Positions 11,313 through 37,357 of a stretch of 45,354 nt of DNA are shown here, in pieces. Where the stretch lies: NCBI GenBank assembly GCA_900321445.1, contig ONWB01000016.1, forward strand, positions 1-45,354, written 5' to 3'. The number at the start of each line of letters is the position of its first letter. Positions within the stretch are counted from its first letter, which is position 1. The DNA comes from an uncultured Prevotellaceae bacterium (GTDB lineage: Bacteria; Bacteroidota; Bacteroidia; Bacteroidales; Bacteroidaceae). The position numbers and the translations under genes were made by a program. The notes under the pieces are model-generated. The model did no database searches. It saw only the letters and a program-made list of their open reading frames with translations, and was not told the DNA's origin.

Positions 11313-11441
11313 CAGCGAGTTGCGCAGCTCGAGATTTTTAGCAGGGAGGAAAAGGGTGAGTTCCTTGGGCGAAAATGGTTTTTCCTGCGTCGAAAAAACG
11401 TAAAGATCCGTGCTCGAGATACGAAAATGCGCACCTCGACG
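11313..11441 (+). repeat. Dispersed dyad-symmetric element, copy A
   Basis: Gapless 100-bp core (11321-11420) matches 37237-37336 and the reverse complement of 21641-21740. Confidence 0.9.
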
Positions 11442-11455
11442 AGGCAAGGTGCGCA
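11424..11455 (-). terminator. Probable terminator of the DUF4301 gene, overlapping the arm of repeat copy A
   Basis: Minus strand TGCGCACCT-N10-AGGTGCGCA-TTTT, about 45 nt after the stop codon. Confidence 0.55.
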
Positions 11456-11499
11456 TATTATAGGTTAACGTCTATTGGCTATTGTTTAACGGTTGTTGC

Positions 11500-13014
11500 C
11501 TATTGGTGTTGCTCGCGGAAAAGGTCGTTGACGGTCTTTACGGGATTGAACGTTTCGAGGGGAACTTCCACGAAGATGGTGTTCCAGTCGCTCATTGCGC
11601 CGTTCCAAAGCCCGGGCAGCTCGAGCGCCTTCAGTTCGCGTCCGTCCTTGCTCTTGTGAGATATGAAGCCGGTTTGCGGATCTACGTAGTCGGGCAGGTT
11701 GAAGGCCTCGCCGCGGAAGTCGCGCAGGCCGCAAACGAGGTCAACGGGGTTGAAGTGCGTGCCACCCTCGAACATCTGCTTCTTCTCGGGGTCGGACATG
11801 TCGATTTGCGAGCTTTCGAGGATTTGTAGCGACACGGTGCCGTCGGGGTTGTAGGCGCGGAAGGGGCCGCCGCCGGGCTCGCCCACGTTCTTCACCATTC
11901 CGCACACGCGCAGCGGGCGGTTGAACTTTGTGAAGAGGTAGTCGGCAAGTTCGAGGTCGGCGAAGCTGCGGTCGGTGTGGCAGCAGAGCGTGTCCTCGAG
12001 GTAGCGCAGCATCTCGTCCATGTCCTCGCGCTCGGGCAGTCCGCCGTCGAGTTGCTCGAGATAGTCGAAGATGCGCTCCTGCTCGCTGACGAGTATGCCG
12101 GCGAGGAGCTTCTTGTAGAGTACGGTGCTGTCTTTCAGGCGGTCGGGCACGACGTTGTCGATGTTCTTGATGAAAACGACGTCGGCGCTGATGTCGTTGA
12201 GGTTTTCGATGAGGGCGCCGTGGCCTCCGGGGCGGAAGAGCAGTGTGCCGTCGTCGTTACGGAAGGGCGTGTTGTCGAGATTTACAGCCACCGTGTCGGT
12301 GGATGGCTTCTGCTCAGAGAAGCTTACGTCGAACTTTGCGCCGTGCTTCTCGGCTATGGCAGCCTGCTTTTCCTCCACCAGCTTCTGGAAGAGCGGGCGG
12401 TGTTCGGGCGAAACGGTAAAGTGTACGCGCACGTTGCCTTCGGCGTCCTTGGCATAGAGTGCACCCTCGACGAGGTGCTCTTCTGCGGGCGTGCGTGCAC
12501 CTTCGTCGTAGTTGTGGAACTTCAGGAGCCCCTTTGGCAGTTTTCCGTAGCCGAGTCCTTCGGTGCTGAGCAGTGTGCTGACGATGTCGCGGCGTCGGTT
12601 GGCTGCCAAGAGTGCTTCGATGCCGATGCCGTGAACCTTCTTGCATGCTGCATCAAGGTCGGCGTAGAATGCTGCCGTCTTGAGGTTCTGGAAGAAAGTC
12701 TTGAGGAATGGCGTGTCCTCGTGGCCCTGCGAGGCGTCGAGGTAGGCGAAGAGGTCCTTGAACATGCGGCTTGCAGCACCGCTTGCGGGCACGAACTTCA
12801 CGACCTCGTGATTGTCGGCGAGGTATGCGTCCCATGCCGCCAGCGCGCTCTGCGTCTCCTCCTCTGTGGGGCGAAGGATGCCGGCGCCGATGGTGGCTGC
12901 TCCGTCGAGCTCAAGAAATGGGAAACCTGTGGCGAACGCTGCAAGCTGAGCGTTGAGCTTTTCCTCGCTGATGCCTTTGGCAGCGAGGAGGGCTTTGTCT
13001 TTTTCGTTGATCAT
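11500..13014 (-). CDS. DUF4301 family protein (nucleotidyltransferase-like)
   Basis: KFVPASGAASRMFK, FRPGGHGALIENL, GEPGGGPF and LELPGLWNGAM motifs. Confidence 0.9.
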   Translation of the reverse strand: MINEKDKALLAAKGISEEKLNAQLAAFATGFPFLELDGAATIGAGILRPTEEETQSALAAWDAYLADNHEVVKFVPASGAASRMFKDLFAYLDASQGHEDTPFLKTFFQNLKTAAFYADLDAACKKVHGIGIEALLAANRRRDIVSTLLSTEGLGYGKLPKGLLKFHNYDEGARTPAEEHLVEGALYAKDAEGNVRVHFTVSPEHRPLFQKLVEEKQAAIAEKHGAKFDVSFSEQKPSTDTVAVNLDNTPFRNDDGTLLFRPGGHGALIENLNDISADVVFIKNIDNVVPDRLKDSTVLYKKLLAGILVSEQERIFDYLEQLDGGLPEREDMDEMLRYLEDTLCCHTDRSFADLELADYLFTKFNRPLRVCGMVKNVGEPGGGPFRAYNPDGTVSLQILESSQIDMSDPEKKQMFEGGTHFNPVDLVCGLRDFRGEAFNLPDYVDPQTGFISHKSKDGRELKALELPGLWNGAMSDWNTIFVEVPLETFNPVKTVNDLFREQHQ

Positions 13015-13290
13015 GGTATTGTTGTGTTTTTAATATACGGTAAAAAGTTCTTACCCCTCGGCAATGGGCTGTCCGGGGAAGAACGTCATGGCTTCCTCTG
13101 CATCGTTGACAGGGCAGGGGGGCATGGAGTGTGCGAAAAGTCGTAGCAGGGAAAGTGTTTTTTCGCGTGGCGAAGCTTTTGGAGGTAGAGATTTCTGCAT
13201 AGGCTTCAAGGGAATTTGCTTTTGTTATATTATCATAACGCATTCGCGCGTGATTTATTATATAACATTGCACAAATTTTTTTCCTGAGT

Positions 13291-13380
13291 GCAGAAAAAG
13301 GGAGTTAAGGGCGTTAGGCGCTTTGGTTTTGCTGGGCGAACCAGCTTACCGGTAGCAGCTAACTTCCTTAACTCCCCTGC
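13291..13380 (-). terminator. Large branched stem-loop downstream of the wzc-like gene
   Basis: GGGAGTTAAGG (13300-13310) / CCTTAACTCCC (13366-13376) inverted repeat with internal hairpins; T5 tail on the minus strand. Confidence 0.55.
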
Positions 13381-13397
13381 TTTATCTGACTGCGTGC

Positions 13398-15830
13398 TTA
13401 GTCTTCGTCCTTGCCGTAGTAGCCGTAGGCTTCCTTGCCGCTTCGGCCGTAGCCGTAGCCATAGCCGTAGCCGTAGCCGTAGTGGTAGCCGTAACGATAG
13501 CTGCCGTAGCGGCTGCTGACGTAGTTCGTGCCGTTAAGCAACAGGCTCATGTTCTGATATTTGTTCTCGGTGTAGAGCTCGTCGATGTCCTTCAGCAGAC
13601 GGCGGTCCATCACGCCTACGCGCACCACGAAGAGTGTGGCATCGGCGTAGTCCTTGATGATGGTGGCGTCGGCGACGATTTCCACTGGCGGGCAGTCCAC
13701 GAGCACATAGTCGTAGTTCTCGCGAGCGTAGTCGATGACGTCCTTCATCTGCTTTGTGAGCAGGAGCTCCGTCGGGTTGGGTGGAATGATGCCCACGGGG
13801 AGCACATCGACGCCCTCGCCGAATGCTGCGGGCAGGATGTAGTCGCTGATATTCCCAGTGCCGGAGGCGAGATAGCTTGTGATGCCCGTCTTCGGCCGCT
13901 TGGGCAACATGTGGCTAAGGCTTGCGCGGCGAACATCGAGGTCGATGCAGAGCACGCGCTTCTTCTTCAACGCTATTGATACGCCGAGGTTCGCTGTGAT
14001 GAAGGTCTTACCGGAACCAGGGTTGAAGCTCGTGATCATGATGACCTTGCGGTCGGTATCCTCCTTGCTGAGGAAGAAGTCGAGCTTCGTGCGCACGAGA
14101 CGGAAGCTCTCGTTGATCATGTCGCGCTTGTTGGGCTGTATGACAATCTTGCGAGTGGCAGCCTTCTTGCGCTCCCAGAAGTGCTTCTTGCGCTCCATCG
14201 TGGGAATTTCGCCAAGCAGCGGCGCCTGCATGCCCTCGAGGTCCTTGCGTCCGCGGACGGTCTTGTTGAGGATTTCGCGCAGGTAGATGATAGCCGCGGG
14301 AATTGCCAAGCCCAGTAAGAGGCCAACGAGCAGAATCATCTTCTTGTTCGGCGCTGCGGGCGCAGAGCTTCCGATGGGCGGCTGTATGATGCGCGTGTTC
14401 CATGCCGTGTAGGCTTTGGAAAGCTCGTTCTCCTCGCGCTTCTGCAGTAGGTAGATGTAAAGCGACTCCTTCACCTTCTGCTGACGTTCTACGCCGAGCA
14501 GCTGTCGAGCTTGGCGCGGATTTGCAGCAATCTTCTCGTTGGTTTCTCCTTCCGAGCGCTCGAGGTTTGCGAGCTGCGCCTTCAGCTGTGCGATGACGTT
14601 GCTCAGCGAACGAAGGATGGCGGTGCGCTGTTCGCGCAGCTGCTCGTCCATAGCCTGGATGATGGGCGACGTCTCGGAGCTGTTGGCGAGGAGTTCGTTG
14701 CGGCGCAGTGTCGTCTGGTTGTACGACTGTATAACACTCTCGATACCTCCTGCAGAGATCGTGTTCGAGGGCAGCAAATGTCCGAGTTCGGAGTTCTGGC
14801 GCATGTGTTGCTCCAGATATTGTGCCATCGCGATCTGGTTGTTCAGGTCAAGTATCGTGCTATAGTTTTGCTGGCTGCGGTTCATGATCATCCCGCTGGC
14901 TGCCGTCACGTCGGGCAGGAGGTTCTGACTCTTGTAGTCGGCGATGTCGCGATCGACGTCGCCCAGTTCCTGCGCGAGTGTGTTAAGACGCTCGTTGATG
15001 AAGTCGGAGGTACTTTCCGCCATGCGGTTCTTGTCCCTGAGCCAACTCTCGTTATAGACGTCGATGAGGGTGAGGATGACGTCAGAGGCGCGTGCGGGAA
15101 CCTCGTCCTGCACCGTCAGCTGGAGGATTGAACTCTGCTTGTCGGTGATGGAGACGCCGAGTCGGCCGGCGTACATGCCGCCGATGGCCTTTACGGGAGA
15201 TTTCGTGACGCTGATGTCCTCGTTGAACCACTGGTCGCCGTATTCCGTTGTAGGCGTGAGCGTGATTGTTCCAAAGGGAGCGCGTATGGCTTGTCCAAGC
15301 GTGGCGTTGATTTCCTTGCCCGTTTCCACACCAGCTACCGTAATGTCCTCGAGGCGTACCTTCTTGTTCGGAGCGAGCTTCAGCGTGAAGCTGAAAGCAT
15401 CCTGCGGGTCGATGTCGGTACCGAGGGTGATTGTTACGGGTGCGTCGTTGTAGAGGGGATGGTCGTAGAGGCGCTGACGTACGGTCATCTCGACGTCGAG
15501 GTGCAGCCTCTGTGCTACTTCCTCCATCAGCACGGGTGCAGAAATGACGGTCTGCTCGTTGATGATGTTGGACTTTCCGGCTATGAGGCCAAGGTCGGCA
15601 AACTCCTGGTTTGTAGAGGTTGTCGTACCGTCGTTTTCGTCCTTGATGAGTAGCATCGCCGAGCGGGTGTAGGTGGGCGTGGTGCTCAGAATCTTGAACA
15701 CCGCTGCGCTAAGACAGATGATGAGTGCAAGCAGGAACCAGTACCATTTTCCAAGCATCATGAAGAATAGCTCTTCAAAGTTGAAGCTCTGGTCCTCTTG
15801 GTTTCTTGCGTTAAGTTCTTCTGTTGTCAT
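13398..15830 (-). CDS. wzc: Polysaccharide copolymerase / BY-kinase (Wzc family)
   Basis: Two TMs flanking a coiled-coil periplasmic domain; Walker A PGSGKT, A' IDLDVR, B VLVDCPP; C-terminal Tyr cluster. Confidence 0.9.
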   Translation of the reverse strand: MTTEELNARNQEDQSFNFEELFFMMLGKWYWFLLALIICLSAAVFKILSTTPTYTRSAMLLIKDENDGTTTSTNQEFADLGLIAGKSNIINEQTVISAPVLMEEVAQRLHLDVEMTVRQRLYDHPLYNDAPVTITLGTDIDPQDAFSFTLKLAPNKKVRLEDITVAGVETGKEINATLGQAIRAPFGTITLTPTTEYGDQWFNEDISVTKSPVKAIGGMYAGRLGVSITDKQSSILQLTVQDEVPARASDVILTLIDVYNESWLRDKNRMAESTSDFINERLNTLAQELGDVDRDIADYKSQNLLPDVTAASGMIMNRSQQNYSTILDLNNQIAMAQYLEQHMRQNSELGHLLPSNTISAGGIESVIQSYNQTTLRRNELLANSSETSPIIQAMDEQLREQRTAILRSLSNVIAQLKAQLANLERSEGETNEKIAANPRQARQLLGVERQQKVKESLYIYLLQKREENELSKAYTAWNTRIIQPPIGSSAPAAPNKKMILLVGLLLGLAIPAAIIYLREILNKTVRGRKDLEGMQAPLLGEIPTMERKKHFWERKKAATRKIVIQPNKRDMINESFRLVRTKLDFFLSKEDTDRKVIMITSFNPGSGKTFITANLGVSIALKKKRVLCIDLDVRRASLSHMLPKRPKTGITSYLASGTGNISDYILPAAFGEGVDVLPVGIIPPNPTELLLTKQMKDVIDYARENYDYVLVDCPPVEIVADATIIKDYADATLFVVRVGVMDRRLLKDIDELYTENKYQNMSLLLNGTNYVSSRYGSYRYGYHYGYGYGYGYGYGRSGKEAYGYYGKDED
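13446..13493 (-). repeat. (TACGGC)n hexamer repeat encoding the YG tyrosine cluster
   Basis: GCCGTA-type unit x6 (13446-13481, one variant GCCATA) plus a further copy at 13488-13493. Confidence 0.85.
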
Positions 15831-15856
15831 CCGTAGATTCTTTTATATTTTCGGCG

Positions 15857-15864
15857 CAAAGGTA
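15857..15864 (-). promoter_or_regulatory. -7 promoter element of wzc
   Basis: TACCTTTG on the minus strand, 26 nt before the ATG. Confidence 0.7.
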
Positions 15865-15969
15865 TATCTTTTTCAAAGATACTACACCAAATTCTTGTTT
15901 TATTTGCGTAAAAATGTGATAAATGGTTGTCGATGATACTTGCAGGTGCAATGTTGGGCTAACATTATC

Positions 15970-16020
15970 GCACTATTGTGTCGTTATGTAGCGCTATCGT
16001 GTCGTTTTGTCGCACTAATG
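15970..16020 (+). repeat. Degenerate 21-bp tandem repeat (about 2.4 units)
   Basis: gcactattgtgtcgttatgta / gcgctatcgtgtcgttttgtc / gcactaatg. Confidence 0.65.
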
Positions 16021-17934
16021 AATTGTGACGTTGGTGATAGTGCTGCGGAACTCGCCCGACTGCAGGAGGGGGAAGCGCAGTGTGGGAACCCACGCCATGC
16101 GTGCTTTCGTGTCCTCGGTCTCTACCCAATGGCGGCGCAGCTCCTGCTGGAGTTTTCCATCGACGAAGAGGCGCGTACTCTCGTTGTCGCCTTCGATAGT
16201 GAGGCGTATGCGGCCTTCTGTAGGCATGACGTAGTCGAAACGAATGAGGTAGCCGTCGCGCTCGAAGGCGAGGTGGCCTTCTTCGGGGTCGCAGAGGTAG
16301 AAGCGTGCGTCGAGGTCTTCGGTGAGTATCGTGCCGAGTTCTTCAAGCTGGCAGTCGATGGTCATGGAGATGGAGTATGGATATCCCAGCGACGTAGGTC
16401 CTGCCGGCGCGACGCGTTCTGTTTCGGGTTTCAGGGTCTCAATGTAGTAGGGACGTCCCTTGAGTCCGAGCTGATCTACGCCTGGGGCTTCGGAGATGTT
16501 TGTGCGCAGCGAGTCGAACACGGCGTATGGCACGCTTGTCGATGCTCCTGCCCACGTCTTCTGCGCTATCGTTTGCAGCGCGGGGAAGAGGCGGTGATGG
16601 ATGTCGGCGGTGGAGATGCCGTTGCCTGGGTGGTCGTTCCAAACAGCAGCCATGCCACCTTCGATTTGTGGGTCGCCTTCGTCAAATTGTACGTTGCCGA
16701 AGTTTGCGGGCGTCCAGTTCTCGTAGAGATACTTGCAGTTGAGGTAGTCGTAGTAGTAGCCTGCTGCGGGCACGATGTACACGAGTCCGTCGGGGATGGA
16801 GAGCAGCTGGTAGCCCAGGTCGTGCATTTCCTTGGGGTTGGCGTAGTCGTTGGACCAGCAGTACATGAGTACATCCTTCGTGCGCACGGGTGTTTCGCCC
16901 TTGGCGTGTGTGAGCGAGCCCCAGCATGCTGCACGTTTGCCGTATTGCTGGACGAATCCGAGGTAGCGGTCGGTCATGGCGCGGAAGGCTTCGACTACTT
17001 CCGGCTTGCGGTTGTTGTACTCGTCGGTGCCGATGTGGAAGTATTTTCCTGTGAATACGGGGTCTGCGGGATCGACGTATTCAGCCAGCAGACTGTCGAG
17101 GAACGTGTAGGTGTTGGGGTGGAAGAGGTCGAGGTGGTCGTCGCCATATCCTTTGGAGGCCAGCTCGGGGCGCAGCCGCGTGAAAGATAGCGAGTGTGCG
17201 GGGAAGTCGATTTCCGGAATGATCTCGACGCAGTGCTGCCGTGCGAACTCCTGCAGTTGCTGGAACTCGAATTTTGTGTAGAAGCCGTCCTGCGCTGTGA
17301 GCTCGGGGAAGAGGTCGCTTTCGAGGCGGAATGCTTCGTACGTCTGCTTCCAGTCGTTGTGGTAGTACTTGGGGAATCCGTTGTCGTTCAGGTGAATGTG
17401 CAGTGTGTTGAGCTTGTGGTAGCTCATTGCACAGATGAGGTCCTCGAGGTAGTGTAGGGGGATGAACTTACGTCCCGCATCGACCATGAGTCCGCGCAGC
17501 GGGTATGCCGGCTTGTCCTCCATCGTTCCGCACGGCAGGCTTCTGTCTTGCGACTGCTCGCTGATTTGTATTAGCGTGCGCGTTGCCCAGTACATGCCCG
17601 TCGGCGTGGATGCACATAGCGTGGCTCCCTTTGGCGTCACCTCGATGGTGTAGGCTTCGTCGGCAAGGCTCTTGTCGAGTCGTAGTTCGATGTCGCCCTT
17701 GCGCGCCTTGCCCTCGTGGGTTTTTAGGGCTTTGCCGAAGATTGTTTGGTAGTCGTCGGCGAGTTGCTGTGCGACGTGCTTGAATGCGCCGCCACGGAAG
17801 CTGACACGGCTGGGTTGCGGGCATCGTCCTTCTGCGGACTGGAATGTTCCTACTTCAGGAATCGTGAAGGGCTTCTGTGCGCCTGCGGCCGTACAGAGCA
17901 GGCAGATGATGGCGATGAGGGTTGTGTGTTTCAT
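16015..17934 (-). CDS. Glycoside hydrolase family 20 (beta-N-acetylhexosaminidase-like), secreted
   Basis: Signal peptide; RGLMVDAGRKF, HIHLND and PEIDFPAH motifs; catalytic HIGTDE. Confidence 0.92.
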   Translation of the reverse strand: MKHTTLIAIICLLCTAAGAQKPFTIPEVGTFQSAEGRCPQPSRVSFRGGAFKHVAQQLADDYQTIFGKALKTHEGKARKGDIELRLDKSLADEAYTIEVTPKGATLCASTPTGMYWATRTLIQISEQSQDRSLPCGTMEDKPAYPLRGLMVDAGRKFIPLHYLEDLICAMSYHKLNTLHIHLNDNGFPKYYHNDWKQTYEAFRLESDLFPELTAQDGFYTKFEFQQLQEFARQHCVEIIPEIDFPAHSLSFTRLRPELASKGYGDDHLDLFHPNTYTFLDSLLAEYVDPADPVFTGKYFHIGTDEYNNRKPEVVEAFRAMTDRYLGFVQQYGKRAACWGSLTHAKGETPVRTKDVLMYCWSNDYANPKEMHDLGYQLLSIPDGLVYIVPAAGYYYDYLNCKYLYENWTPANFGNVQFDEGDPQIEGGMAAVWNDHPGNGISTADIHHRLFPALQTIAQKTWAGASTSVPYAVFDSLRTNISEAPGVDQLGLKGRPYYIETLKPETERVAPAGPTSLGYPYSISMTIDCQLEELGTILTEDLDARFYLCDPEEGHLAFERDGYLIRFDYVMPTEGRIRLTIEGDNESTRLFVDGKLQQELRRHWVETEDTKARMAWVPTLRFPLLQSGEFRSTITNVTIH

Positions 17935-17959
17935 CTGTGTCGTGTGTTGTTAGGAAATA

Positions 17960-17996
17960 CTGCAGGCGTACGGAAGGATTTCCCGTGCGCCCGCAG
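17960..17996 (-). terminator. Stem-loop after the EF-G2 gene
   Basis: CTGCGGGCGCACGGGAA/TTCCGTACGCCTGCAG hairpin with a weak U tail. Confidence 0.55.
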
Positions 17997-18038
17997 ATTA
18001 AACAAAGTCATATACAAATTGTTCGGGGTTGGAGAGTG

Positions 18039-20195: not shown

Positions 20196-20251
20196 GGTTG
20201 TGTTAAGGTTTATAAGATTGGTTTATGTGTTCGTTGTTTGCAAATCGGGGC

Positions 20252-20283
20252 GCAAGGTAGTTAAAAGTTTGGTTACTGCCAAA
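20252..20283 (-). promoter_or_regulatory. fusA2 promoter (variant -7 element)
   Basis: TTTG (20283-20280), 20-nt spacer, TACCTTGC (20259-20252). Confidence 0.55.
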
Positions 20284-20411
20284 CGATTCCCGCCACAAAT
20301 GCATGTTTTGTGCCACAAATATCGTGATGCGGCTGTCGTCGCAGCGTTTCCAGGCGTCGAAATGTGCATTTGCGCTTGCCTCGTATTTGTTTGGTGCGTA
20401 GGCTGTGATGT

Positions 20412-20861
20412 CTATTTGTTGATCATCTTCAGGAGCGAGTCGATGGTGTCTTGCAGGTGCACCTTGTCGGTCTGCAGGGCTTTGTTCTGCTCGCGCAGCA
20501 TTTCGAGCTCGCGCTGCATTGCTGCCTTCTCCTCGGCGGCCGCTGCTGTCTGCCCGCTGTTGAGGGTGTTGCCTTGTCCGCCCTGCACGTTGCCTCCGCT
20601 CATGTTGCCCACGACCTGCCCAAAGTCAACGTTGAGGTTCAGCTGTTGCGTAGCACTCACGTTGGGTTCCTCTGTGCTGAGGTGGCACAATGGCACGCGG
20701 AGCAGTGTGCTCAGGCGCTCGACGGTTGCCCAGTTCGGGTTGCCTTCGGCGAAGAGCCTGTACCACGATGCGTGGTTCTGCCATCCCATGCGCTCCATGA
20801 TTTGTTGAACAGACATCCCGCTGTCTTTTAAAGCCTTCTTGAGTGGTTCTGGATTAAACAT
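20412..20861 (-). CDS. XRE/Cro-CI-type HTH regulator with C-terminal coiled coil (ORF open upstream to 21215)
   Basis: LKKALKDSGMSVQQIMERMGW..SWYRLF..GNPNWATVERLSTLLRVPL HTH pattern; TAGTTTTG promoter at 20899-20892 just upstream of ATG 20861. Confidence 0.8.
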   Translation of the reverse strand: MFNPEPLKKALKDSGMSVQQIMERMGWQNHASWYRLFAEGNPNWATVERLSTLLRVPLCHLSTEEPNVSATQQLNLNVDFGQVVGNMSGGNVQGGQGNTLNSGQTAAAAEEKAAMQRELEMLREQNKALQTDKVHLQDTIDSLLKMINK

Positions 20862-21215
20862 GATTAGTTGACATATAATTTTGTTTTTCGGCAAAACTAA
20901 AAAATCTTTTGGGAAAATGCAAGCATCAGGCCAATTATTTTTGATTTGAATGTAAATTTCCTCGATTTCGTTGAGTTTTGCATAGTATTCGACGAAGCCA
21001 ATGAGGTCGAAATTGGACAGAAAAAGGTCCAGCGGGGATACGTCGGGGGCGTCGGGCTCTGTGTCGTCGGGCTCGGGCGCTTCGCTGTTGTTAAGGGCAG
21101 ACTCAGGCTCCTCGGGCTCTGTGTTCTCGAGGTTCTCGTCGCCGTGGTTGTCGTTTTCGGGCTTGTGGTTCGGGGCGGGGTCGTCAGGTGGATATAGGGG
21201 GATTATGTTCTTCAT
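20862..21215 (-). CDS. In-frame acidic Pro/Glu/Asp-rich N-terminal extension of the HTH ORF
   Basis: ATG 21215 has its own promoter (CTTG-20 nt-TACGTTTG at 21288-21281); no stop codon before the HTH domain. Confidence 0.5.
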
Positions 21216-21522
21216 CTCGGTAATGCTTTTAAGGTTGAAATGTGGTTCGCCGATAAGGGCTCCTTCCGCCCTCTCTGATGCAAACGTACGCTATCTGCCG
21301 CTTACTTCCAAGAGAACGTGTCGGTTTTCCTATAGAAAAACCGAAAATTCTTTTCCAGCCCTCGTTTTTGCAAAGTCGAGTGTAGAAATCGCGAACATTC
21401 CCGCTCGCCATCTTGGCCTTCTGGCGTGCCGCGTGCGAGGCTATTCGGACGAGGGGAATGTATCGCGAAATGTTAATTAAAACGAAAAATGATATTCAGA
21501 AGGAAAATTTTTGCATCTTTTC

Positions 21523-21597: not shown

Positions 21598-21748
21598 CGT
21601 CGATCGGCGCACCTCGCAACTCTGAGCTGCTTGCCCCTGAATCTCGAGCACGGACCTTTTCGTTTTTTCGACGCAGGAAAACTTGTCGAAGTCCGTGGAA
21701 GTGGTCAGCGAGCAGCGTGCTCAAAATCTCCGCCTGCGCAGCTCGATG
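21598..21748 (-). repeat. Dispersed dyad-symmetric element, copy C (inverted, with 22-nt insertion)
   Basis: 21641-21681 is 39/41 identical to the reverse complement of 11380-11420; the whole 100-bp core aligns without gaps. Confidence 0.9.
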
Positions 21749-28781: not shown

Positions 28782-28920
28782 GCCCAACGACCAGCAGCGC
28801 CAGGATCGTGATCCGCAGACGCAGCAGCTGCTAAACCTCTCCAGGCAAGCAGAGCAACGCACACGCGACCGCATAAACGCTACGCCGCGCAGACAATATC
28901 GCACCGACAAGGACTGGTAA
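28183..28920 (+). CDS. batC: BatC TPR protein with poly-Gln linker
   Basis: Signal-like MKTPIIIIFF..ASAQ, TPRs (HYNMG, ARYNLA), Q-rich tract, C-terminal KDW. Confidence 0.85.
   Translation: MKTPIIIIFFSLLATGASAQTPFWSQMSRGNKSFAKKDYAAASNNYRRAQALRPEDARPTFNLGTSLLGQQDANAAMDTFSKAAEAASDPILRSMAHYNMGYIAQQSSLTSEPQQKPEYLKQAIEHYKNALRANPADDNARYNLALCQKQLKDAQQQQQQQNQQQQQQDQNKEQQDKQQQQQDQQQNQDQNQQQQQNQPEPNDQQRQDRDPQTQQLLNLSRQAEQRTRDRINATPRRQYRTDKDW
28642..28775 (+). repeat. CAG/CAA-rich low-complexity tract (poly-Q of BatC)
   Basis: Encodes QQQQQQQNQQQQQQDQNKEQQDKQQQQQDQQQNQDQNQQQQQNQ. Confidence 0.85.
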
Positions 28921-28945
28921 TGTATCCGCGTCAATAAACAACGAA

Positions 28946-31552
28946 ATGAAAAGACTCTTTCTTCTCACGATATTCCTCGTTCCCGCCATGCTCTTGGCGC
29001 AGCGACTCACGATTGAGCCGCCCCAGGAGGTACGCGCGGGCGTGCCCTTCCAGCTTAGGTACTTCGTGGATGCCGACGCTGACCCCTCGGACTTTCACTT
29101 GCAGCTGCCAAGCGGACTGCGCCTGCTAAATTCTGCAAGGAAAAGCAGTTTTAGCAGTACGACCATCGTCAACGGACGACGTACCGATGAGCGAGGTACA
29201 AACCTCACGCTTGTGGTTCAGGCGCAGCACGCGGGAACATTCCGCGTCCCTGCTGCGTCGCTTCGCCTCAACGATGGACGTACAATCACGTCGAACTCCT
29301 TCAGCTTTGTGGCTGTGGACGACGACAAGCCTGCGCCCTCGCACAACGGGGAGCCATCGATGCAACCAATAGGAAGCCGCATCACCGAGAACGATGCCTT
29401 CGTAATGGCTTCGGCAGACCGCACGGGCGTACTCGAACAGCAGCCGGTGCTCATTTCCCTGCGCCTTTATACACGCGTCGGCGTTGCCGTAGATAATCCT
29501 ATGCTCGCCGGCTCGTTGCCAGAGGTGGAGGGCGCATCCATCCAGAACGTCTCGCCTGGCGCCTCGCAGATGGACATCGTGCAGAATGGAGGAGTATCAT
29601 ACCATGTGCGTACGATAGGACGCTTTATGCTGATTCCCTCAAAAGCCGGAACCATCACGCTTCCTGCCATCACCATCCGCGCTACGGCATTGCAGCGCCG
29701 TCAGTTCACGAACCCACTGGACGAATTTTTCAACAATGCATCTACACGCATCGGCATACCCATAGAACGCTCGACGAAACCACTGACGATACGTGTCGAG
29801 GCTTTGCCGGAACCGCGTCCTGCCGACTTCTCGGGTGGAGTAGGGCAGATGCAGCTAAGCGCAAGCCTTCTCAAACCCGAAGTGCGAGCCAACGACGTTG
29901 CCACACTGCGTCTTCGACTTTCTGGCGTAGGCAACATGAAGCACCTTTCAGCACCATCCGTAAGCTTTCCGAGCGACTTCGAAACATATAGTCCCAAGAC
30001 TACAGATTCCACCAAACTTACTCGCGATGGCGACGTGGGTATTGTGAATTTCGACTATACCTTCGTGCCGCGAAATGCAGGCCACTACGAGATTCCTGCC
30101 CTCACATTCACATATTATGATACGGGAAAACGCAGTTACGAAACGCTTCGCACTGAGCCTGTGAGCTTTGACGTTCAACCCGACGACAGACCTGCTGCCG
30201 ACGTTGAGGCAGAACGCGAACTCCGACAAAGCGACATTGCACCGCTACGTCGCGACAAAGCAAGGCTTTTCTCCGAGGAAAATCCATCGTGGTGGGGTAC
30301 GTGGAGCTATTGGCTCACACTCTTGCTCATCATTGTGGCTTACTTCCTGCTGCGTCCTTTGGTGCGCCGCTATCTTGCACGCCTTGCCGACCACGAAGGA
30401 ATGCGTCGCAGTCGTGCCGGACGCGTGGCGAATAAGCGCCTACGCACAGCGCAGCAACTGCTTGCTGTTCCCGAAGCCCAGGCATCGGCTTTCTACGACG
30501 AACTGGCGCATGCTTTGGAAGGCTACCTTGCAGACAAATTCTCGTTGCCAGCGTCCGAACGTACTCGCGAGCGCATTGCGGAAATTCTTGCAAGCACAAA
30601 TGTTCCCGACGAAGCTGCGCAAATGTTTACCGATGCCCTTGAACAGTGCGACATGGCACGCTTCGCACCATCAGCAGCGCAGAATCGCCGTTCGCTCTAC
30701 GACCTTGCGGCGCACGCCATCGAGGGACTTGAGACAAAGGGCGCTTCAAAGAAAAAGGACATGACGCAGAAAAATCCTGTCGAAGGGTTGGCGACGGTTT
30801 TCGTAGCACTCACAATCACGTTTGTGGGCTTTATGATTCCCACGGCGTCCCATGCTACGCGTGCAGACTCCCTGAAAACTATGGGCGACAGCCTCTACGA
30901 CGCACAGCTCTACGTTGAAGCGGCGGCATCCTACGAGGATGCGCTTAAGGACGGCGCATGTGCTGCTCTTTTGCAGAATCTCGGAAATGCCTATTTCCGT
31001 ATGAATGACTTTACAAAAGCCACCATAGCATACGAACGTGCGTTGCGCATAGAACCTTACAACAAGGAACTGCGCCACAACATAGCACTCTGCGCTACGA
31101 AGATCGAGGACCGCTTCGCCCAGAAGCAGGAAATGTTCTTCGTAACATGGACACGGACGCTTCGCGACAGCCTCTCGACAGATGCTTGGGCGGTGTTGGG
31201 CATTGTTTTCTTCCTGCTGTTCGTATGCGGACTTGCGCTTTATCAACTCTCTGAGCGCCAACGTCTGCGCAAGGTGGGATTCTTCGGCGGCGGATTTGTG
31301 CTTCTGCTCTTCCTGGCAACGCAAATGTTTGCTTTAAGCCAGCGCAGTGAGCTCCGAAACCGCCAGCGTGCCGTCGTGACGGCATCTCCGGCGCAGCTCC
31401 ATGAGAGCTCGGCACCACAAAGTCGCACAGAGAAGGAACTACATCCTGGTGTGGGTGTTACCTTGACGGACTCCACGCGAGAAGCCTACGAGGTGGAATT
31501 GCCCGATGGTACTCGCGGATGGATGCTCCGTGGAGATGTGGAGAGAATATGA
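28946..31552 (+). CDS. batD: BatD-BatE fusion protein
   Basis: Signal peptide, BatD domains, TM and CDMARFAP, then in frame a TPR (NLGNAYFR), two TMs and SH3b (ELPDGTRGW) typical of BatE. Confidence 0.88.
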   Translation: MKRLFLLTIFLVPAMLLAQRLTIEPPQEVRAGVPFQLRYFVDADADPSDFHLQLPSGLRLLNSARKSSFSSTTIVNGRRTDERGTNLTLVVQAQHAGTFRVPAASLRLNDGRTITSNSFSFVAVDDDKPAPSHNGEPSMQPIGSRITENDAFVMASADRTGVLEQQPVLISLRLYTRVGVAVDNPMLAGSLPEVEGASIQNVSPGASQMDIVQNGGVSYHVRTIGRFMLIPSKAGTITLPAITIRATALQRRQFTNPLDEFFNNASTRIGIPIERSTKPLTIRVEALPEPRPADFSGGVGQMQLSASLLKPEVRANDVATLRLRLSGVGNMKHLSAPSVSFPSDFETYSPKTTDSTKLTRDGDVGIVNFDYTFVPRNAGHYEIPALTFTYYDTGKRSYETLRTEPVSFDVQPDDRPAADVEAERELRQSDIAPLRRDKARLFSEENPSWWGTWSYWLTLLLIIVAYFLLRPLVRRYLARLADHEGMRRSRAGRVANKRLRTAQQLLAVPEAQASAFYDELAHALEGYLADKFSLPASERTRERIAEILASTNVPDEAAQMFTDALEQCDMARFAPSAAQNRRSLYDLAAHAIEGLETKGASKKKDMTQKNPVEGLATVFVALTITFVGFMIPTASHATRADSLKTMGDSLYDAQLYVEAAASYEDALKDGACAALLQNLGNAYFRMNDFTKATIAYERALRIEPYNKELRHNIALCATKIEDRFAQKQEMFFVTWTRTLRDSLSTDAWAVLGIVFFLLFVCGLALYQLSERQRLRKVGFFGGGFVLLLFLATQMFALSQRSELRNRQRAVVTASPAQLHESSAPQSRTEKELHPGVGVTLTDSTREAYEVELPDGTRGWMLRGDVERI

Positions 31553-31587
31553 CATTCTTTAGCACACAAAAAAGCCGCAAACAGACG

Positions 31588-31650
31588 CTCTGACGCGGAA
31601 AACTTGTGCTTCGACATAGAAAATAAGCGTTCCGACACAGAAAAAAACGG
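31588..31650 (+). repeat. Degenerate 21-bp tandem repeat (3 units)
   Basis: GAC at 31592, 31613 and 31634, each followed by nnnGAAAA. Confidence 0.65.
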
Positions 31651-31714
31651 CGCGAAGGTAGCTTTTTAATTTTCTTTTGCTATCTTCGCGCTGTCATTGT
31701 ACATTGTTTATATC

Positions 31715-32341
31715 ATGATCATCATCGGTATTGCTGGCGGCACAGGTTCAGGAAAAACCACCGTCGTACGAAAAATCATAGAGCAGCTTCCTGAAGGACG
31801 CGTCTCTGTAGTTCCGCAAGATTCTTACTACAAGGCTGCGCAGCCGGGAGTGCCTCTCGAGCAGTTGAGGAAAAAGAATTTCGACCATCCCGACGCTTTC
31901 GACTGGGAACTCTTGGAGGAACAAATACGTTGCCTGCGTGAAGGAAAGTCTATTGAACAGCCAGTATATTCGATGCTTACCTGCGACCGTACGTCGGAAA
32001 CCGTGCATGTTGAGCCTTCGGACGTGATCATCATCGAGGGCATTATGGCTCTTTATCGCAAGGAGCTTCGTGACATGATGGACCTGCGTATCTTTGTGGA
32101 TGCCGGTCCCGACGAGCGCCTCATTCGCGTGATGGAGCGCGACGTCATCGAGCGCGGACGCACAGCGCGACAAGTGATGGATCGCTATCGCAGCGTGCTG
32201 AAACCCATGCACAAGCAGTTCATTGAACCGACGAAGGAGTATGCTGACCTCATCATCCCGCAGGGTGGAAACAATACCCGTGCTATCGAGATCATGAGGA
32301 TATATATCGAGAAGATACTGCACGGCGGACACATCAAGTAG
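31715..32341 (+). CDS. udk: Uridine kinase
   Basis: IGIAGGTGSGKTT, QDSYY, NFDHPDAFD and RDVIERGR motifs. Confidence 0.95.
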   Translation: MIIIGIAGGTGSGKTTVVRKIIEQLPEGRVSVVPQDSYYKAAQPGVPLEQLRKKNFDHPDAFDWELLEEQIRCLREGKSIEQPVYSMLTCDRTSETVHVEPSDVIIIEGIMALYRKELRDMMDLRIFVDAGPDERLIRVMERDVIERGRTARQVMDRYRSVLKPMHKQFIEPTKEYADLIIPQGGNNTRAIEIMRIYIEKILHGGHIK

Positions 32342-32454
32342 CCTGTGCATGCGTTATGCCGCTGACGAAAATAGCAGGAAGTCGGAGGCTGCGCCCGTTT
32401 GATATGCGACGCGTAATTTATCATGGTTTGCGCCTTGCGCGGAGAGCTTTGCAC

Positions 32455-32519
32455 AAAAAAAATTGATTGTCTCACGACAACCAATCTTTACTAACCTTAA
32501 ATCTAATACCATGAAAAAC
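32455..32519 (-). ncRNA. Candidate ~65-nt small RNA
   Basis: Own promoter (TTTG-20 nt-TATCTTTG, 32555-32524) and intrinsic terminator ATTGGTTGTC-gtga-GACAATCAAT-T run; no meaningful ORF. Confidence 0.75.
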
Positions 32520-32565
32520 GGTGCAAAGATACGGGCGAAATCAAGTCCTGACAAATGTTTTTAAG

Positions 32566-32601
32566 AAAAAACCGCAAAAAAATATGTTTTTGCGGTTTTT
32601 T
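32566..32601. terminator. Perfect palindrome; bidirectional terminator or operator
   Basis: AAAAAACCGCAAAAA-aatatg-TTTTTGCGGTTTTTT. Confidence 0.6.
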
Positions 32602-32721
32602 CCTTTCTTTCTGCAAAGCAGACTTTTCGTTTTTCTTATGATTTGCTATGTTTTTTGCCAAATTCGGACTAAAGATTCTCGGCTCCGAGGACCATATTTC
32701 GGGCTAAAAATACGTTTTATA

Positions 32722-33765
32722 CTATAGTAAATGCTTGTATGCTTCGACGGCGCGTTCCACTGTTCGCACAGCATCTTCGATAGGAAAGGGGAGCTCGCCT
32801 CCGCTGGCGTTCATGTGGCCACCTCCGTTGAAGAATTCCTCAGCCATACGGTTGCAGGGGAAGTCGTCGACGCTGCGCAATGATACGCGCACGACGTCGC
32901 GCTCAGTGTCCTCGCGCAAGGATATGCTCAGTCGCGAGCCCTTCACCTGTAGCGGCATGTTCACGAGTCCCTCGCCGTCGCCGCGAATGAAGTGCAAGCG
33001 TTTCATCTCCTCGCGCGTCAGCGTAAAATATGCAGCGCGCCCTTCCGCAAGCCATTTTACCTTTTCGTAAAGAACATATCCTTGCAGCTTGAGCCGCCAA
33101 GCACTGAAGCTGTGATAGACGTTTCGGTAGATGCGATCCTTGTCGATGCCCTTTTGTACGAGGAGCGCGATGACTTCGTAGATTTCGGGGTAGGACGACG
33201 AGTAGGCAAGGTTCCCCGTGTCGGTCATGAGGCCGCAGTAAATGTCGGTAGCCATGTCCAGCGACATACCCTCGTAGGCTCCGAGTTGCAGCAGCAGTCG
33301 GAAGACGATTTCGGAGGTAGAACTGAGTTCAGGCTGCGACACGGCAAAGTTGAATTCCTTCAGGGCGGGTGCGAGGTGGTGGTCGATGAGTAGCCGCTTG
33401 GCGTGGGATGAAGCTACGCACTCCCCCATGTTCTGCAGGCGCGAGAGCGTGTTGAAGTCGAGGCAGCAGATGAGGTCGGCATCGGCAATAAGCTGCTTCG
33501 CTGTTTGTGTGTGGCGGTCAAAGTATGTTACCTTGTTCGCTTCTGGAAGCCATTGCAGGAAGTCCGGACAGGGGTTGGGGAGCACTACGCTCACCATCTT
33601 GCCCAGTCCTCGCAGGTAGGCGGCCCATGCCAGCGTGGAGCCCATTGCGTCGCCGTCGGGCGAACGATGAGCGCAGACGACGACCTTGCGGCTGTCCTGC
33701 AAGAGTTTCATTAGGTCGATTGTCTCGGAAAGCGAGAGCAAGTGTAAGTTTTCGTACGTGCTCAT
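32722..33765 (-). CDS. DHH family phosphoesterase (NrnA-like)
   Basis: HRSPDGDAMGS, LIDHH, TDTG and GGGHMNASG motifs; ATG 33765 overlaps the rpe stop. Confidence 0.92.
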   Translation of the reverse strand: MSTYENLHLLSLSETIDLMKLLQDSRKVVVCAHRSPDGDAMGSTLAWAAYLRGLGKMVSVVLPNPCPDFLQWLPEANKVTYFDRHTQTAKQLIADADLICCLDFNTLSRLQNMGECVASSHAKRLLIDHHLAPALKEFNFAVSQPELSSTSEIVFRLLLQLGAYEGMSLDMATDIYCGLMTDTGNLAYSSSYPEIYEVIALLVQKGIDKDRIYRNVYHSFSAWRLKLQGYVLYEKVKWLAEGRAAYFTLTREEMKRLHFIRGDGEGLVNMPLQVKGSRLSISLREDTERDVVRVSLRSVDDFPCNRMAEEFFNGGGHMNASGGELPFPIEDAVRTVERAVEAYKHLL

Positions 33766-34406
33766 TCTCCGCGCAGTATTTCGATTTCGCGAACAGGATC
33801 TTCGGCACCGAAGACGGCGCTTCCCGCAACGAGAATGTCGGCACCAGCTTCCTCCAGCAGACGAGCCGTGCGACGGTTTACGCCTCCGTCTATTTCCACG
33901 AGAGCGCCCGAGTCGCGTTCTGCTAGCAGGTTCTGGAGCCGTCGCGTCTTGTCGAGGGTGTTTTCGATGAACGTCTGTCCGCCGAATCCCGGGTTCACGC
34001 TCATCAGCAGCACGACATCTGCTTCCGTCAGTATCTCCTCGATTGCCGCCAGCGGCGTATGCGGATTCAGCGCCACGCCAGCCTTCATGCCGGCTTCCCG
34101 TATCTGCGTAAGTACGCGATGCAGGTGTGTGCATGCCTCGGCATGTACCGTCATGACGCTAACGCCCAGGTCTGCCAGGCGCTGCGTGTAGAATTCTGGA
34201 TGAACTGTCATCAGGTGGGCGTCGAGCGTCAGCTTAGTGTTTCGTGCGACGGCTTCGATAACGGGAAAGCCGAAACTGATGTTCGGGACGAAGACGCCGT
34301 CCATGATGTCGAGGTGGAGCCAGCGTGCCTCGCTCTGTGATAACATGTCCAGCTCGTCGCCGAGTCGAGAGAAGTCGGCAGAGAGTAGGGAGGGGGATAT
34401 AATCAT
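33762..34406 (-). CDS. rpe: Ribulose-phosphate 3-epimerase
   Basis: SPSLLSADF, HLDIMDGVFVPN, MSVNPGFGGQ and EIDGGVN motifs. Confidence 0.96.
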   Translation of the reverse strand: MIISPSLLSADFSRLGDELDMLSQSEARWLHLDIMDGVFVPNISFGFPVIEAVARNTKLTLDAHLMTVHPEFYTQRLADLGVSVMTVHAEACTHLHRVLTQIREAGMKAGVALNPHTPLAAIEEILTEADVVLLMSVNPGFGGQTFIENTLDKTRRLQNLLAERDSGALVEIDGGVNRRTARLLEEAGADILVAGSAVFGAEDPVREIEILRGE

Positions 34407-34440
34407 TGTCTTGAGGCTTGGAAATGTGGTTTTCTGTGTG

Positions 34441-34497
34441 CAAAGATAAAAAAGTTTTCGCGCTGGAGAAAAGAAAGCGCGATTTTTCATACTTTTG
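34441..34497. promoter_or_regulatory. Back-to-back promoters for rpe and the S9 peptidase
   Basis: TATCTTTG on the minus strand (34448-34441) and TACTTTTG on the plus strand (34490-34497). Confidence 0.7.
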
Positions 34498-34526
34498 CGC
34501 CTCATTAAGACACAAACAGCACACTC

Positions 34527-36335
34527 ATGAAGCGCATACCACTTGAGGATTTCTTCCGCAACAGCCCTGAAACAGGTTTCCAGTTATCTCCCGATGGCCA
34601 CCACATCGCATACTTAGCTCCCTACGAGGATCGAATGAATATCTTCGTGCGTGAAGGCGATGGCTCGCGACAACTGACGTATGAAACTGCCCGCAGTATT
34701 GCTGGCTACTTCTGGGCGGACAACAAGCGCATCCTGTTCATGAAGGATACCAGCGGCGACGAGAACTACCAGCTCTATGGCGTCAACATCGACGGCACGG
34801 ACCTGCGCCCATACACATCCTTCGAGGGTGTGCGCACGACCATCATCGACGACCTCGAGGAGGTGCCCGACGAGATAATCATCGGCATGAACCGACGAAA
34901 CCCCGAAGCATTCGACCCATATCGCCTGAACCTGCAGACGGGAGAACTGACGCTGTTGGCAGAAAATCCCGGCAACTGGCAAGGATGGATGACGGATCAT
35001 GACGGCAAGTTGCGCAGCGTGACGGCCATCGTGGACGGTGTGAACACGCAGATACTATATCGCGACAGCGAGGACGAGGAATTCCGCCCCGTGCTGACGA
35101 CGAATTTCCGCGAGAGCGTATGCTTCCTTGAGTTTACTCCCGACAACCGCTACGTTTGGGCGGCTACGAACCTCGGCCGCGACAAGTCGGTGCTCGTCCT
35201 GATGGATCCTGCGACGTGCGAGGAGCTGGAATTGCTCTACGAGAACCCACAGTACGACGTCAACGCCATATCATACAGCCGTCGCCGCAAGCGTCTGCTC
35301 GGCGTGTTCTGCGTAGGACACAAGGATATCGTGCGCCACTATTTCGACGATGAGGAAGCAGCGTTCCGCAAGCGCATCGAGGCGCATTTCCCAGGCCAGC
35401 GCGTAGGCATGGCAGACGTCGATAAGGCAGAGGAGAACTACCTCCTCTACGTAGGCGGCGACCGCACACGCGGCGCATACTATTATTATAATATTGTGAC
35501 GGACGCTCCGCAGCTCATCGCCGATCTTGCTCCGTGGCTCAAGCCTGAAGACCTCGTTCCGATGCAGACCTTCACATATACAACACGCGACGGATTGCAG
35601 ATAGAAGCCTACCTTTCGATGCCGCAGGGCACTGAACACGATGCTCCGCTCGTGGTCATCCCGCACGGAGGTCCGTGGTCGCGCAACAGCTGGGGCTACA
35701 ACTCGGAAGTTCAGTTCCTCTGCAATCGCGGATATGCCGTTCTGCAGATGAACTTCCGCGGCTCCACGGGCTACGGGCGCCGCTTCCTTGAGGCCTCCTA
35801 CAAGGAGTGGGGTAGGAAGATGCAGGACGACATCACCGATGGCGTGCAGTACCTGATAGCACAGGGGACAGCCGACCCGAAGCGCATCGCCATCTACGGC
35901 GGCAGCTATGGCGGCTATGCCACGCTTGCGGGGCTCTGCTTCACGCCCGACCTCTACCGTTGCGGCATCGACTATTGCGGAGTCTCCAACCTCTTCACGT
36001 TTATGCAGACGATACCTCCCTATTGGAAGCCCCTTTTGGAGATGATCTACGAGCAGGTGGGCAATCCGGAAGAAGAGCGCGACCTGCTGGCAGCAGCGTC
36101 GCCGGCCCTGCATGCCGACAACATCAAGGCACCGCTCTTCATCGCGCAAGGCTCCAACGACCCCCGCGTCAACAAAGCCGAGAGCGACCAGATGGTGGCA
36201 GCCCTGCGCGCACGCGGCATCGAGGTCGAGTACATGGTGAAGGACGACGAGGGCCACGGCTTTGCAAATCAGGAGAACCGCTTCGACTTCTACCGCGCAA
36301 TGGAGCGCTTCCTCGAGCGATACATGCCCGTGTGA
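34527..36335 (+). CDS. S9 family serine peptidase (prolyl oligopeptidase/acylaminoacyl-peptidase-like)
   Basis: HGGP, NFRGSTGYG, nucleophile GGSYGG, NDPRV and EGHGF; no signal peptide. Confidence 0.93.
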   Translation: MKRIPLEDFFRNSPETGFQLSPDGHHIAYLAPYEDRMNIFVREGDGSRQLTYETARSIAGYFWADNKRILFMKDTSGDENYQLYGVNIDGTDLRPYTSFEGVRTTIIDDLEEVPDEIIIGMNRRNPEAFDPYRLNLQTGELTLLAENPGNWQGWMTDHDGKLRSVTAIVDGVNTQILYRDSEDEEFRPVLTTNFRESVCFLEFTPDNRYVWAATNLGRDKSVLVLMDPATCEELELLYENPQYDVNAISYSRRRKRLLGVFCVGHKDIVRHYFDDEEAAFRKRIEAHFPGQRVGMADVDKAEENYLLYVGGDRTRGAYYYYNIVTDAPQLIADLAPWLKPEDLVPMQTFTYTTRDGLQIEAYLSMPQGTEHDAPLVVIPHGGPWSRNSWGYNSEVQFLCNRGYAVLQMNFRGSTGYGRRFLEASYKEWGRKMQDDITDGVQYLIAQGTADPKRIAIYGGSYGGYATLAGLCFTPDLYRCGIDYCGVSNLFTFMQTIPPYWKPLLEMIYEQVGNPEEERDLLAAASPALHADNIKAPLFIAQGSNDPRVNKAESDQMVAALRARGIEVEYMVKDDEGHGFANQENRFDFYRAMERFLERYMPV

Positions 36336-36379
36336 AAGTGGAAAAAAGAGCCGTAAAGTGTTAAAATCGTGGAAAAATG

Positions 36380-36410
36380 TTTGTCGTGTCGCTGAGATAA
36401 CGTACCTTTG
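36380..36410 (+). promoter_or_regulatory. Promoter of the ECF sigma gene
   Basis: TTTG, 19-nt spacer, TACCTTTG. Confidence 0.75.
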
Positions 36411-36492
36411 CCGCCGATATTCTAAATTTTTAATCACAAAACGCAAGAGCCTATCGGAACATCATTACTCTAAACCAACCAGTTAGAAGGTA

Positions 36493-37089
36493 ATGACACA
36501 TCTTAAACAACGCACCGACGAGGAGTTGGTGACGATGTATGCTTCAGGAATGAACAGCGCGTTCGACGTGCTGCTTGAGAGGTATAAAGATAAGCTCTAT
36601 TCCTACATCCTTTACTTAGTTCACAATGCTGACGTTGCAGACGACCTGTTCCAGGACACGTTCGTCCGCGCCATTATGAACATACGCCAAGGTAAATATA
36701 CCGAGGGCGGGAAGTTCTACGCCTGGCTCACGCGAATTGCCCACAACCTCGTCATCGACCAGTTCCGCGCAGAGCGCACCGAGAACACCATCAGCGGCGA
36801 GGAAGAAGGCAAAGACCTCATCAACAACAGCCTGCGCCTTTCCGAAGCCAGCATCGAGCACGCTATGCTCAACGAGCAGACACGTATGGACATCCGCCGC
36901 CTCATACGCCACCTTCCCGAAAGCCAGCGCGAAGTTGTTACGATGCGTTACTACCAAGGACTCTCGTTCAAGGAAATTGCCGAGCAGAAGAACATAAGCA
37001 TCAACACGGCTCTCGGACGCATCCACTACGCCATCAACAACATGCGCCGCATGGCGAAGGAACACGGCATAGAGCTCTACAACGCATAG
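36493..37089 (+). CDS. ECF sigma-70 factor
   Basis: Region 2 ADDLFQDTF..WLTRIAHNLVIDQFR; region 4 LPESQREV..GLSFKEIAE..INTALGR. Confidence 0.93.
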   Translation: MTHLKQRTDEELVTMYASGMNSAFDVLLERYKDKLYSYILYLVHNADVADDLFQDTFVRAIMNIRQGKYTEGGKFYAWLTRIAHNLVIDQFRAERTENTISGEEEGKDLINNSLRLSEASIEHAMLNEQTRMDIRRLIRHLPESQREVVTMRYYQGLSFKEIAEQKNISINTALGRIHYAINNMRRMAKEHGIELYNA

Positions 37090-37153
37090 CGACGACCGAC
37101 ATAACCCTTGCGCCCGCTAATCCCATTCGGGACGGGCAGCAAGTCGCCAATAT

Positions 37154-37194
37154 AAGGGGCAGAAGCATCACGCACAGTGCTTTCGCCCCTTTTT
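37154..37194 (+). terminator. Rho-independent terminator after the ECF sigma gene
   Basis: AAGGGGCAGAAGCA ... TGCTTTCGCCCCTT hairpin followed by a T run. Confidence 0.75.
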
Positions 37195-37228
37195 ATGTGC
37201 TCTTCGGTGGAGTTTGTTGTCCGTAGTG

Positions 37229-37357
37229 CATCGTCCTGCGCAGGTCGAGATTTTTTGCACGGACCTTTTGGGTCACTTCCTTGGGCGAAAATGGTTTTTC
37301 CGGCTTCCGGAAAACGTCGAGCTCCCTGCTCAAGATTGCGAGGTGCTCATCCGAACT
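37229..37357 (+). repeat. Dispersed dyad-symmetric element, copy B
   Basis: 79/100 identical (manual count) and gapless against 11321-11420, including a 25-bp identical block TTCCTTGGGCGAAAATGGTTTTTCC. Confidence 0.9.

Follow-up and report, generated by a model that had tools for sequence, protein, structure and literature searches.

A fixed-length family of intergenic repeats with phased palindrome-like units in an uncultured rumen Prevotellaceae bacterium

The stretch of DNA analysed here (the window) comprises 45,354 nucleotides, positions 1 to 45,354 of contig ONWB01000016.1 (assembly GCA_900321445.1) of an uncultured Prevotellaceae bacterium; it is contig C68 of a 2.16-Mb genome (G000) that is 82% complete, lies in 222 contigs and has 53% GC. 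Its genes include EF-G2 of Bacteroidetes type, SusC/SusD and BatA/B; together with an Rfam FopS RNA they assign it to Bacteroidales, and the sequencing runs that match it are mostly bovine gut metagenomes. Three of its intergenic regions contain copies of a repeat for which we found no description in the literature searched. Copy A (11314–11440, + strand; well conserved over 11314–11420, its right unit decayed and reaching about 11440) is flanked by a TonB-dependent receptor gene and by the 3′ end of a DUF4301 gene. Copy B (37230–37356, +; well conserved over 37230–37336) has an extracytoplasmic function (ECF) sigma gene on one side and a cluster of fasciclin/SusC genes on the other, and copy C (21598–21747, −; well conserved from 21747 to 21641) has a doubled right outer unit, set at a 22-bp step, that reaches to about 21598. 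The original prediction, which had described these three copies, was right in their coordinates, orientation and consensus, with 100-bp cores starting at 11321 (+), 37237 (+) and 21740 (−), and its gap-free alignment of the cores also holds, at identities of 79, 70 and 65%.

It had further been suggested that the three copies belong to a genome-wide family, and this is the case. A profile built on them identifies 11 more copies at E ≤ 1.8e-11, for a total of 14, and the next match is at E = 0.051; iterating the profile brought in nothing beyond the opposite strands of these loci and some partial matches, and the iterated profile gave a best E of 0.92 against the reversed genome. MAFFT aligns the 14 copies with no gaps over 122 columns, and there are none within the core when long flanks are included; pairwise core identity ranges from 56 to 86%. 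Conservation has a sharp onset at columns 2–4, extends to column 108 and has faded by about column 120. The repeat is ~120 bases in size, and its length is equal in all 14 copies. All of the copies are intergenic; the short open reading frames (ORFs) that overlap them were judged spurious, and none lies in an ORF of at least 150 aa that was judged real. Six are found between tandem genes, three between divergent genes, two between convergent genes and three at contig edges (the genome gaps of at least 200 bp are 196 tandem, 81 divergent and 73 convergent); the neighbours are unrelated core genes, orientation is mixed, and five of the 14 copies lie within 140 bp downstream of a same-strand gene. 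The gene context of the copies is random. We note an additional hairpin that overlaps copy A at its right end and is followed, within 11429–11500 of the window, by a repeat of 7/21-bp period that is common to many other sites; in run X6 a paralogue contig diverges from the window just past this hairpin and repeat. Copy B has terminator-like hairpins on either side, at 37156–37194 (read from the sequence) and at 37353–37379.

The dyad is centred at core position 57 (alignment column 65), and the element repeats internally with a period of 21. From left to right it consists of U0, a 14-bp palindrome centred at 11.5; four units, U1–U4, with 9-bp cores at columns 33, 55, 76 and 97 that lie between T- and A-rich linkers; and U5, the decayed right partner of U0. 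Unit centres are 21–22 bp apart, corresponding to two turns of DNA, and U1 and U4 are inverted partners. In copy A (+) the centres are at 11323/4 for U0, at 11345, 11367, 11388 and 11409 for U1–U4, and at about 11430 for U5, and in copy B (+) those of U1–U4 are at 37261, 37283, 37304 and 37325; U5 is doubled in copy C and in the copy designated C65. The U0 palindrome, which occupies 11317–11330 (+) in copy A, has an invariant central GCGC and variable arms, and it does not occur in the genome outside of the 14 elements. The AT-centred unit of about 28 bp that had been proposed for each end is not upheld: it corresponds to the linker that joins U0 to U1, and taken by itself it shows little symmetry (in the consensus, 4 of 13 mirrored positions).

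A comparison of the two arms of the dyad reveals a pattern that is confined to the unit cores. The original prediction had noted that many arm mismatches would be G.G or C.C pairs; across the whole dyad this does not hold, since like-with-like positions make up only 186 of 502 mismatches, about the expected third, but there is a strong excess inside the four cores, where 224 mirrored positions comprise 106 that are like-with-like, 70 that are paired, 33 G.T or A.C and 15 others. The cores conform to a code of strong (S) and weak (W) base pairs, SSWSSSWSS; SSWS is present in 65 of the 112 half-sites, with 15 different SSWS words represented out of a possible 16.

The variation among copies follows the same distinction. 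Distinct variant alleles in the cores include 40 that keep the S or W class (G↔C, A↔T), 23 transitions and 16 others, versus 18, 31 and 13 respectively in the linkers (p = 0.007), with the core and linker zones having been drawn after seeing the data. At fourfold sites compared with the nearest species the proportions are 31%, 38% and 32%, and both the cores (p = 0.0006) and the whole element (p = 0.006) differ from this baseline; because the copies are related, the p-values on variant classes overstate the significance. In other arrays with 21- and 22-bp periods, swaps that keep the S or W class account for 28% and 25%. Differences between the copies come as blocks. Among 30 deviant blocks of 14 nt, seven agree with a different position of the family in at least 12 of the 14 nucleotides, all seven of them on the opposite strand, as compared with two of 200 shuffled blocks; these seven represent about five independent events, and the remaining 23 have no donor above chance. 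For example, U2 is replaced by an inverted U4 in C65, U1 has been made complementary to U4 in C164, and the U3 units of C9 and C65 are mutual inversions of each other. U2 of copy C looks like the product of conversion by U4 in inverted form. As described in PMC8604942, polymerase template switching at inverted repeats leads to homogenisation of the arms and inversion of the spacer, favours transversions in bacteria, and leaves inverted repeats more conserved than their flanks.

Repeats with a similar period are common elsewhere in this genome. Rows reported by Tandem Repeats Finder are concentrated at periods of 7 (170), 21 (108) and 22 (56), versus seven rows at a period of 20 and nine at 23, and rows with a period of 21–22 number about 76 per Mb here, 66 in G066 (714 kb), which is the nearest sampled species, and 12.5 in the more distant G013 (400 kb). 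Units resembling U2–U4 of the element occur in free 21-bp arrays, and the arrays having unit cores in common with it are located at G000 C83:11100–11320, C107:14017–14102, C126:797–930, C153:5880–6003 and C188:8501–8701. The C126 array begins with the exact right-arm module of the element.

A second dispersed intergenic family, F2, has the same design and an unrelated sequence, and is present in 24 copies (for example at G000 C97:21780–21980, C104:6264–6415 and C140:111–226, together with 21 other sites, outside the window). Four 22-bp palindromic units are present in 22 of these, with one unit lost and one gained in the other two, and all 72 of the 72 spacings are 22 bp. The 4-nt loops of F2 have been flipped independently, producing eight loop-orientation patterns among 22 copies, and they vary by transitions and inversion; all 96 of 96 keep an asymmetry of purine-rich and pyrimidine-rich sides, and none is a perfect palindrome. 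A homologue of F2 in G066 has the same termini, with three units in each of the three copies seen in the 714 kb (L193:965, L181:10869 and L210:10273). A unit number that does not vary inside a species but differs from one species to another fits the spread of whole copies from a founder; in other repeat families of G066 the unit number is variable. We also note that another 22-bp phased family, about 140 bp in length, has four copies, at G000 C143:1997–2132 and on C158, C86 and C70; the C143 copy follows closely downstream of an HU-like gene, and on C151 the HU-like gene has a copy of F2 just upstream.

Searches beyond this genome did not reveal the element. It is absent from all 40 relatives, from 147 of 147 congeneric species by blastn and again by profile, from 99 orthologous loci, and from the phages and plasmids searched; the GTDB collection contains no match to a strict two-arm motif, although that motif recognises no more than about half of the 14 copies themselves. 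No scan of the metagenome collection for the element was made, which leaves species missing from GTDB outside this negative. In G066 (83% identity in DUF4301; 71% complete), DUF4301 is followed by a different gene and no element. The gene order around site B is kept in a metagenomic relative, L059, in which the region is about 160 bp shorter and does not contain the element. L059 is alignable upstream of the downstream gene at this site (77% over 257 bp, 37460–37711), including the upstream region at 37460–37623 (+), which lies outside the repeat and is given as context. From this sequence comparison, the promoter of the gene downstream of copy B is likely to lie outside the element; the model used in the sigma-70 scan leaves out Bacteroidetes promoters.

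At site B, strains of the same species retain the repeat. Copy B is in place and without indels in all three conspecific DNA runs, which are from three other studies, and no rearranged joints were found at it in four of four runs, as judged from assembled contigs, which drop rare variants. Among the paralogue pieces listed in the runs, 10 of 11 are gap-free, and the eleventh contains a net-zero gap pair. In run X10 the flanking intergenic DNA has 18 differences in 416 bp versus at most one in 118 bp of the element (p between 0.02 and 0.09), although the contrast between element and flanks over all strains vanishes (p = 0.50) if seven unlisted strain differences fall in the element, and template switching by itself is reported to make inverted repeats more conserved than the DNA around them. 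Contigs of RNA run X15 are present on both genes flanking copy B and none is on the element, a contig gap that is not evidence.

We favour, with some reserve, the interpretation that the element is a species-restricted, non-autonomous dispersed repeat of phased palindromic units, of the kind represented by repetitive extragenic palindromes (REPs), bacterial interspersed mosaic elements (BIMEs), BOX and BrickBuilt, and that it has been diversified by length-preserving template switching. The founder array would have arisen from the genome's large pool of 21–22-bp palindromic tandem repeats, whole copies would have been dispersed by a trans-acting enzyme or by recombination, and template switching between the element's own units would change blocks of bases while keeping the length. 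Because every unit is the inverted partner of others, such switching would invert spacers and copy half-sites in register. A host function is not needed in this reading.

Several observations weigh against it. No mover was found, and the copies are without target-site duplications, as had been predicted from the window; with all boundaries tried, the best result is four of 14 copies for 2 bp, at most one of 14 for 4–5 bp, and none for 8–9 bp. End profiles of the element match no gene-flanking site in the genome, and left-end profiles have no match outside the 14 copies, the transposase searches having covered only PF01609 and PF01797, in a genome that is 82% complete. The single Y1 and the single DDE transposase both have other ends: the Y1 gene is on C99, from which the element is absent, and is flanked by other hairpins, and the 13-bp terminal repeat of the DDE element on C92 differs from the ends of our repeat. 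No inversion between strains was seen at copy B, and neither gain versus loss nor the insertion ends at site B are fixed, because the L059 intergenic region is unalignable base by base. Since other 21/22-bp arrays vary in unit number, the fixed length of the element may reflect selection. Template switching also explains the mixing of alleles that keep the S or W class, but not founder half-sites that differ almost only by complement swaps, and alone it leaves the like-with-like excess in the cores (106 versus 70 pairs) unexplained. As to the two transposase loci themselves, we note that the Y1/IS200-like (RAYT-like) gene at L011:1396–1857 (G000 C99) has inverted 42-bp arms and GC hairpins unrelated to the element, and that an insertion sequence (IS) with DDE_Tnp_1, DUF4372 and 13-bp terminal inverted repeats occupies G000 C92:6580–7883.

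The behaviour of the cores could alternatively be that of a selected binding array, in which a protein that senses DNA shape or the minor groove would be bound as four to six dimers, two helical turns apart on one face of the DNA. Lineage-specific HU-like proteins would be candidates, and the function would be to organise the chromosome or to insulate the promoter that follows from a preceding terminator; we regard this as doubtful. Minor-groove readers treat G:C and C:G alike, and A:T and T:A alike, and the SSWSSSWSS code, with its many SSWS half-sites, is consistent with such a reader, as are the excess of S- or W-keeping alleles over linkers and fourfold sites, the core length that never varies, and the scarcity of differences in the element in run X10. 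The genome also contains 10 matches to the HU-like TIGR01201, of a family that is expanded and fast-evolving in Bacteroidetes (PMC5499826). However, the zones are post hoc and the copies are not independent, the allele excess is specific to this family, as seen from the other 21- and 22-bp arrays and from F2, and the strain contrast is lost when the seven unlisted differences are placed in the element. Only two of the TIGR01201 matches are over the cut-off and none of the 10 adjoins any of the 14 copies, the element is absent from all of the congeners, and PMC5499826 proposes roles in conflict, not in the binding of repeats, for the HU-like proteins. A more elaborate version, in which the element is a selected landing array of fixed size written in a strong/weak base-pair code instead of a letter code, its four to six phased 9-bp SSWSSSWSS cores being read in the minor groove by a lineage-specific HU-like protein, and constitutes one of several private repeat–protein pairs, replaced from one species of Bacteroidales to another, which would organise or insulate the chromosome, strikes us as distinctly doubtful.

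Serine resolvase res sites are about 115–120 bp in length and contain several unequal dyad subsites with an adjacent resolvase, and a multi-subsite recombination site of this or of invertase type, used by a serine or tyrosine recombinase, would accommodate the length, fixed spacing, dyad symmetry and internal inversions of the element. The original prediction had invoked both res sites and REP- or MITE-like elements (MITEs being miniature inverted-repeat transposable elements), of which the latter comparison stands; the res-site reading fails the tests run, because no recombinase or transposase adjoins a full copy, and we consider it highly improbable. Enzyme and protein searches in the genome took in five families, and the one resolvase match is partial (PF00239, profile positions 85–145) and is on C86, a contig without the element, while the one tyrosine recombinase match is not next to a full copy; in addition, no joint is present at copy B in the assembled contigs of any of the four runs, and the genes that flank this site are unchanged in three strains and in L059. 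Unlike res sites, the element has a regular 21–22-bp period in place of unequal subsites, 14 chromosomal copies, no adjacent resolvase and no symmetric AT-centred crossover site, and its inverted segments, at 4–60 bp, are shorter than recombinase synapsis normally needs. A structured non-coding RNA, or an ERIC-like hairpin acting in mRNA stability, is quite improbable, and the earlier preference for a DNA element over an RNA stem is borne out: RNAalifold predicts no pairs for the 14 copies, G.T and A.C are equally frequent among dyad mismatches (83 and 80), and Rfam has no match at the element at either threshold. Some single copies do fold well, with z-scores of about −6 for C65 and −3 to −5 for C58 in an overall range of about 0 to −6, and five copies are closely downstream of same-strand genes; but z is weaker than −2 on both strands in seven of the 14, including A and C, and orientation to the neighbours is mixed. 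A classical MITE, whose parent IS would be missing from the incomplete genome and whose termini and target duplications would have decayed, is in keeping with the sharp left boundary, and the size and 14 copies fit bacterial MITEs (PMC3184786, PMC4596501). This is nonetheless very improbable given the lack of target-site duplications, a right end that is decayed while the interior is conserved, and ends that match neither transposase-bearing element found.

Other candidates were rejected. A coding element of the RPE-like type is rejected because its frames carry stops (a single reverse frame stays open in 12 of the 14 copies and the other five in 7–10 of 14, such that every frame has stops in 2–7 of 14) and because variability by codon phase is flat (0.21/0.17/0.21). 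For a regulon operator, we note that the neighbours are unrelated core genes and that two copies lie between convergent genes, and for a carrier of methylation motifs, that the 6-bp palindromes of the consensus are not over-represented (ratios of 0.70–0.88). A strict S/W motif scan returned eight arrays, three of which are elements, and is not used as support because it is insensitive and partly circular. Elsewhere in the window, at 32453–32521 (−), there is an Rfam match to BTncRNA_FopS at 69.5 bits, which is above the gathering score.

If the favoured interpretation of a template-switched dispersed repeat is correct, this is one more species-specific element in a known class, unusual in that its length is fixed, its units differ from one another yet stand in dyad order, and they exchange sequence by inversion; these features would make it a clean record, left by nature in a gut bacterium, of template switching. 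If protein binding instead underlies the strong/weak code, the element would be a testable DNA target for the expanded and functionally unexplained HU-like proteins of Bacteroidetes, and would offer a reason for the widespread 21–22-bp phasing of Bacteroidetes intergenic repeats.

A comparison with known systems reveals both similarities and differences. The BrickBuilt MITE of Porphyromonas gingivalis (PMC4596501) is likewise a species-restricted intergenic element of the Bacteroidales with 10–20 copies (19 there, 14 here) and no Rfam match, and its internal units also span some two turns of the helix (23 nt there, 21–22 here). It differs in having from 1 to 22.8 direct copies of a single unit, a leader, a tail and 12-bp IS5-type terminal repeats, whereas in the element here the units are unlike, constant in number and arranged as a dyad, there is inverted exchange between them, and no IS-type ends were found. 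ERIC (~127 bp), CIR (~110 bp) and RUP (107 bp), as covered by PMC3184786, are similar in size, in their dispersed intergenic copies, and in forming an imperfect overall palindrome; ERIC-type elements are described there as having terminal repeats, target duplications, TA ends and an RNA fold, none of which was found here, a separation that is made by description and not by sequence. REP, BIME and REPIN elements with their RAYTs, and pneumococcal BOX, are also mosaics of short palindromic units with regular spacing and alternating orientation (PMC2817692, PMC3184786); unlike these, the element has no conserved hairpin stem, nor the stem of REP and REPIN elements in which a variable loop follows a 4-base tag, no copy beside the Y1 gene of the genome, and a fixed number of units. 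Although it fails the MITE and REP membership tests that were run, the element resembles the mosaics exemplified by BrickBuilt, BOX and BIME.

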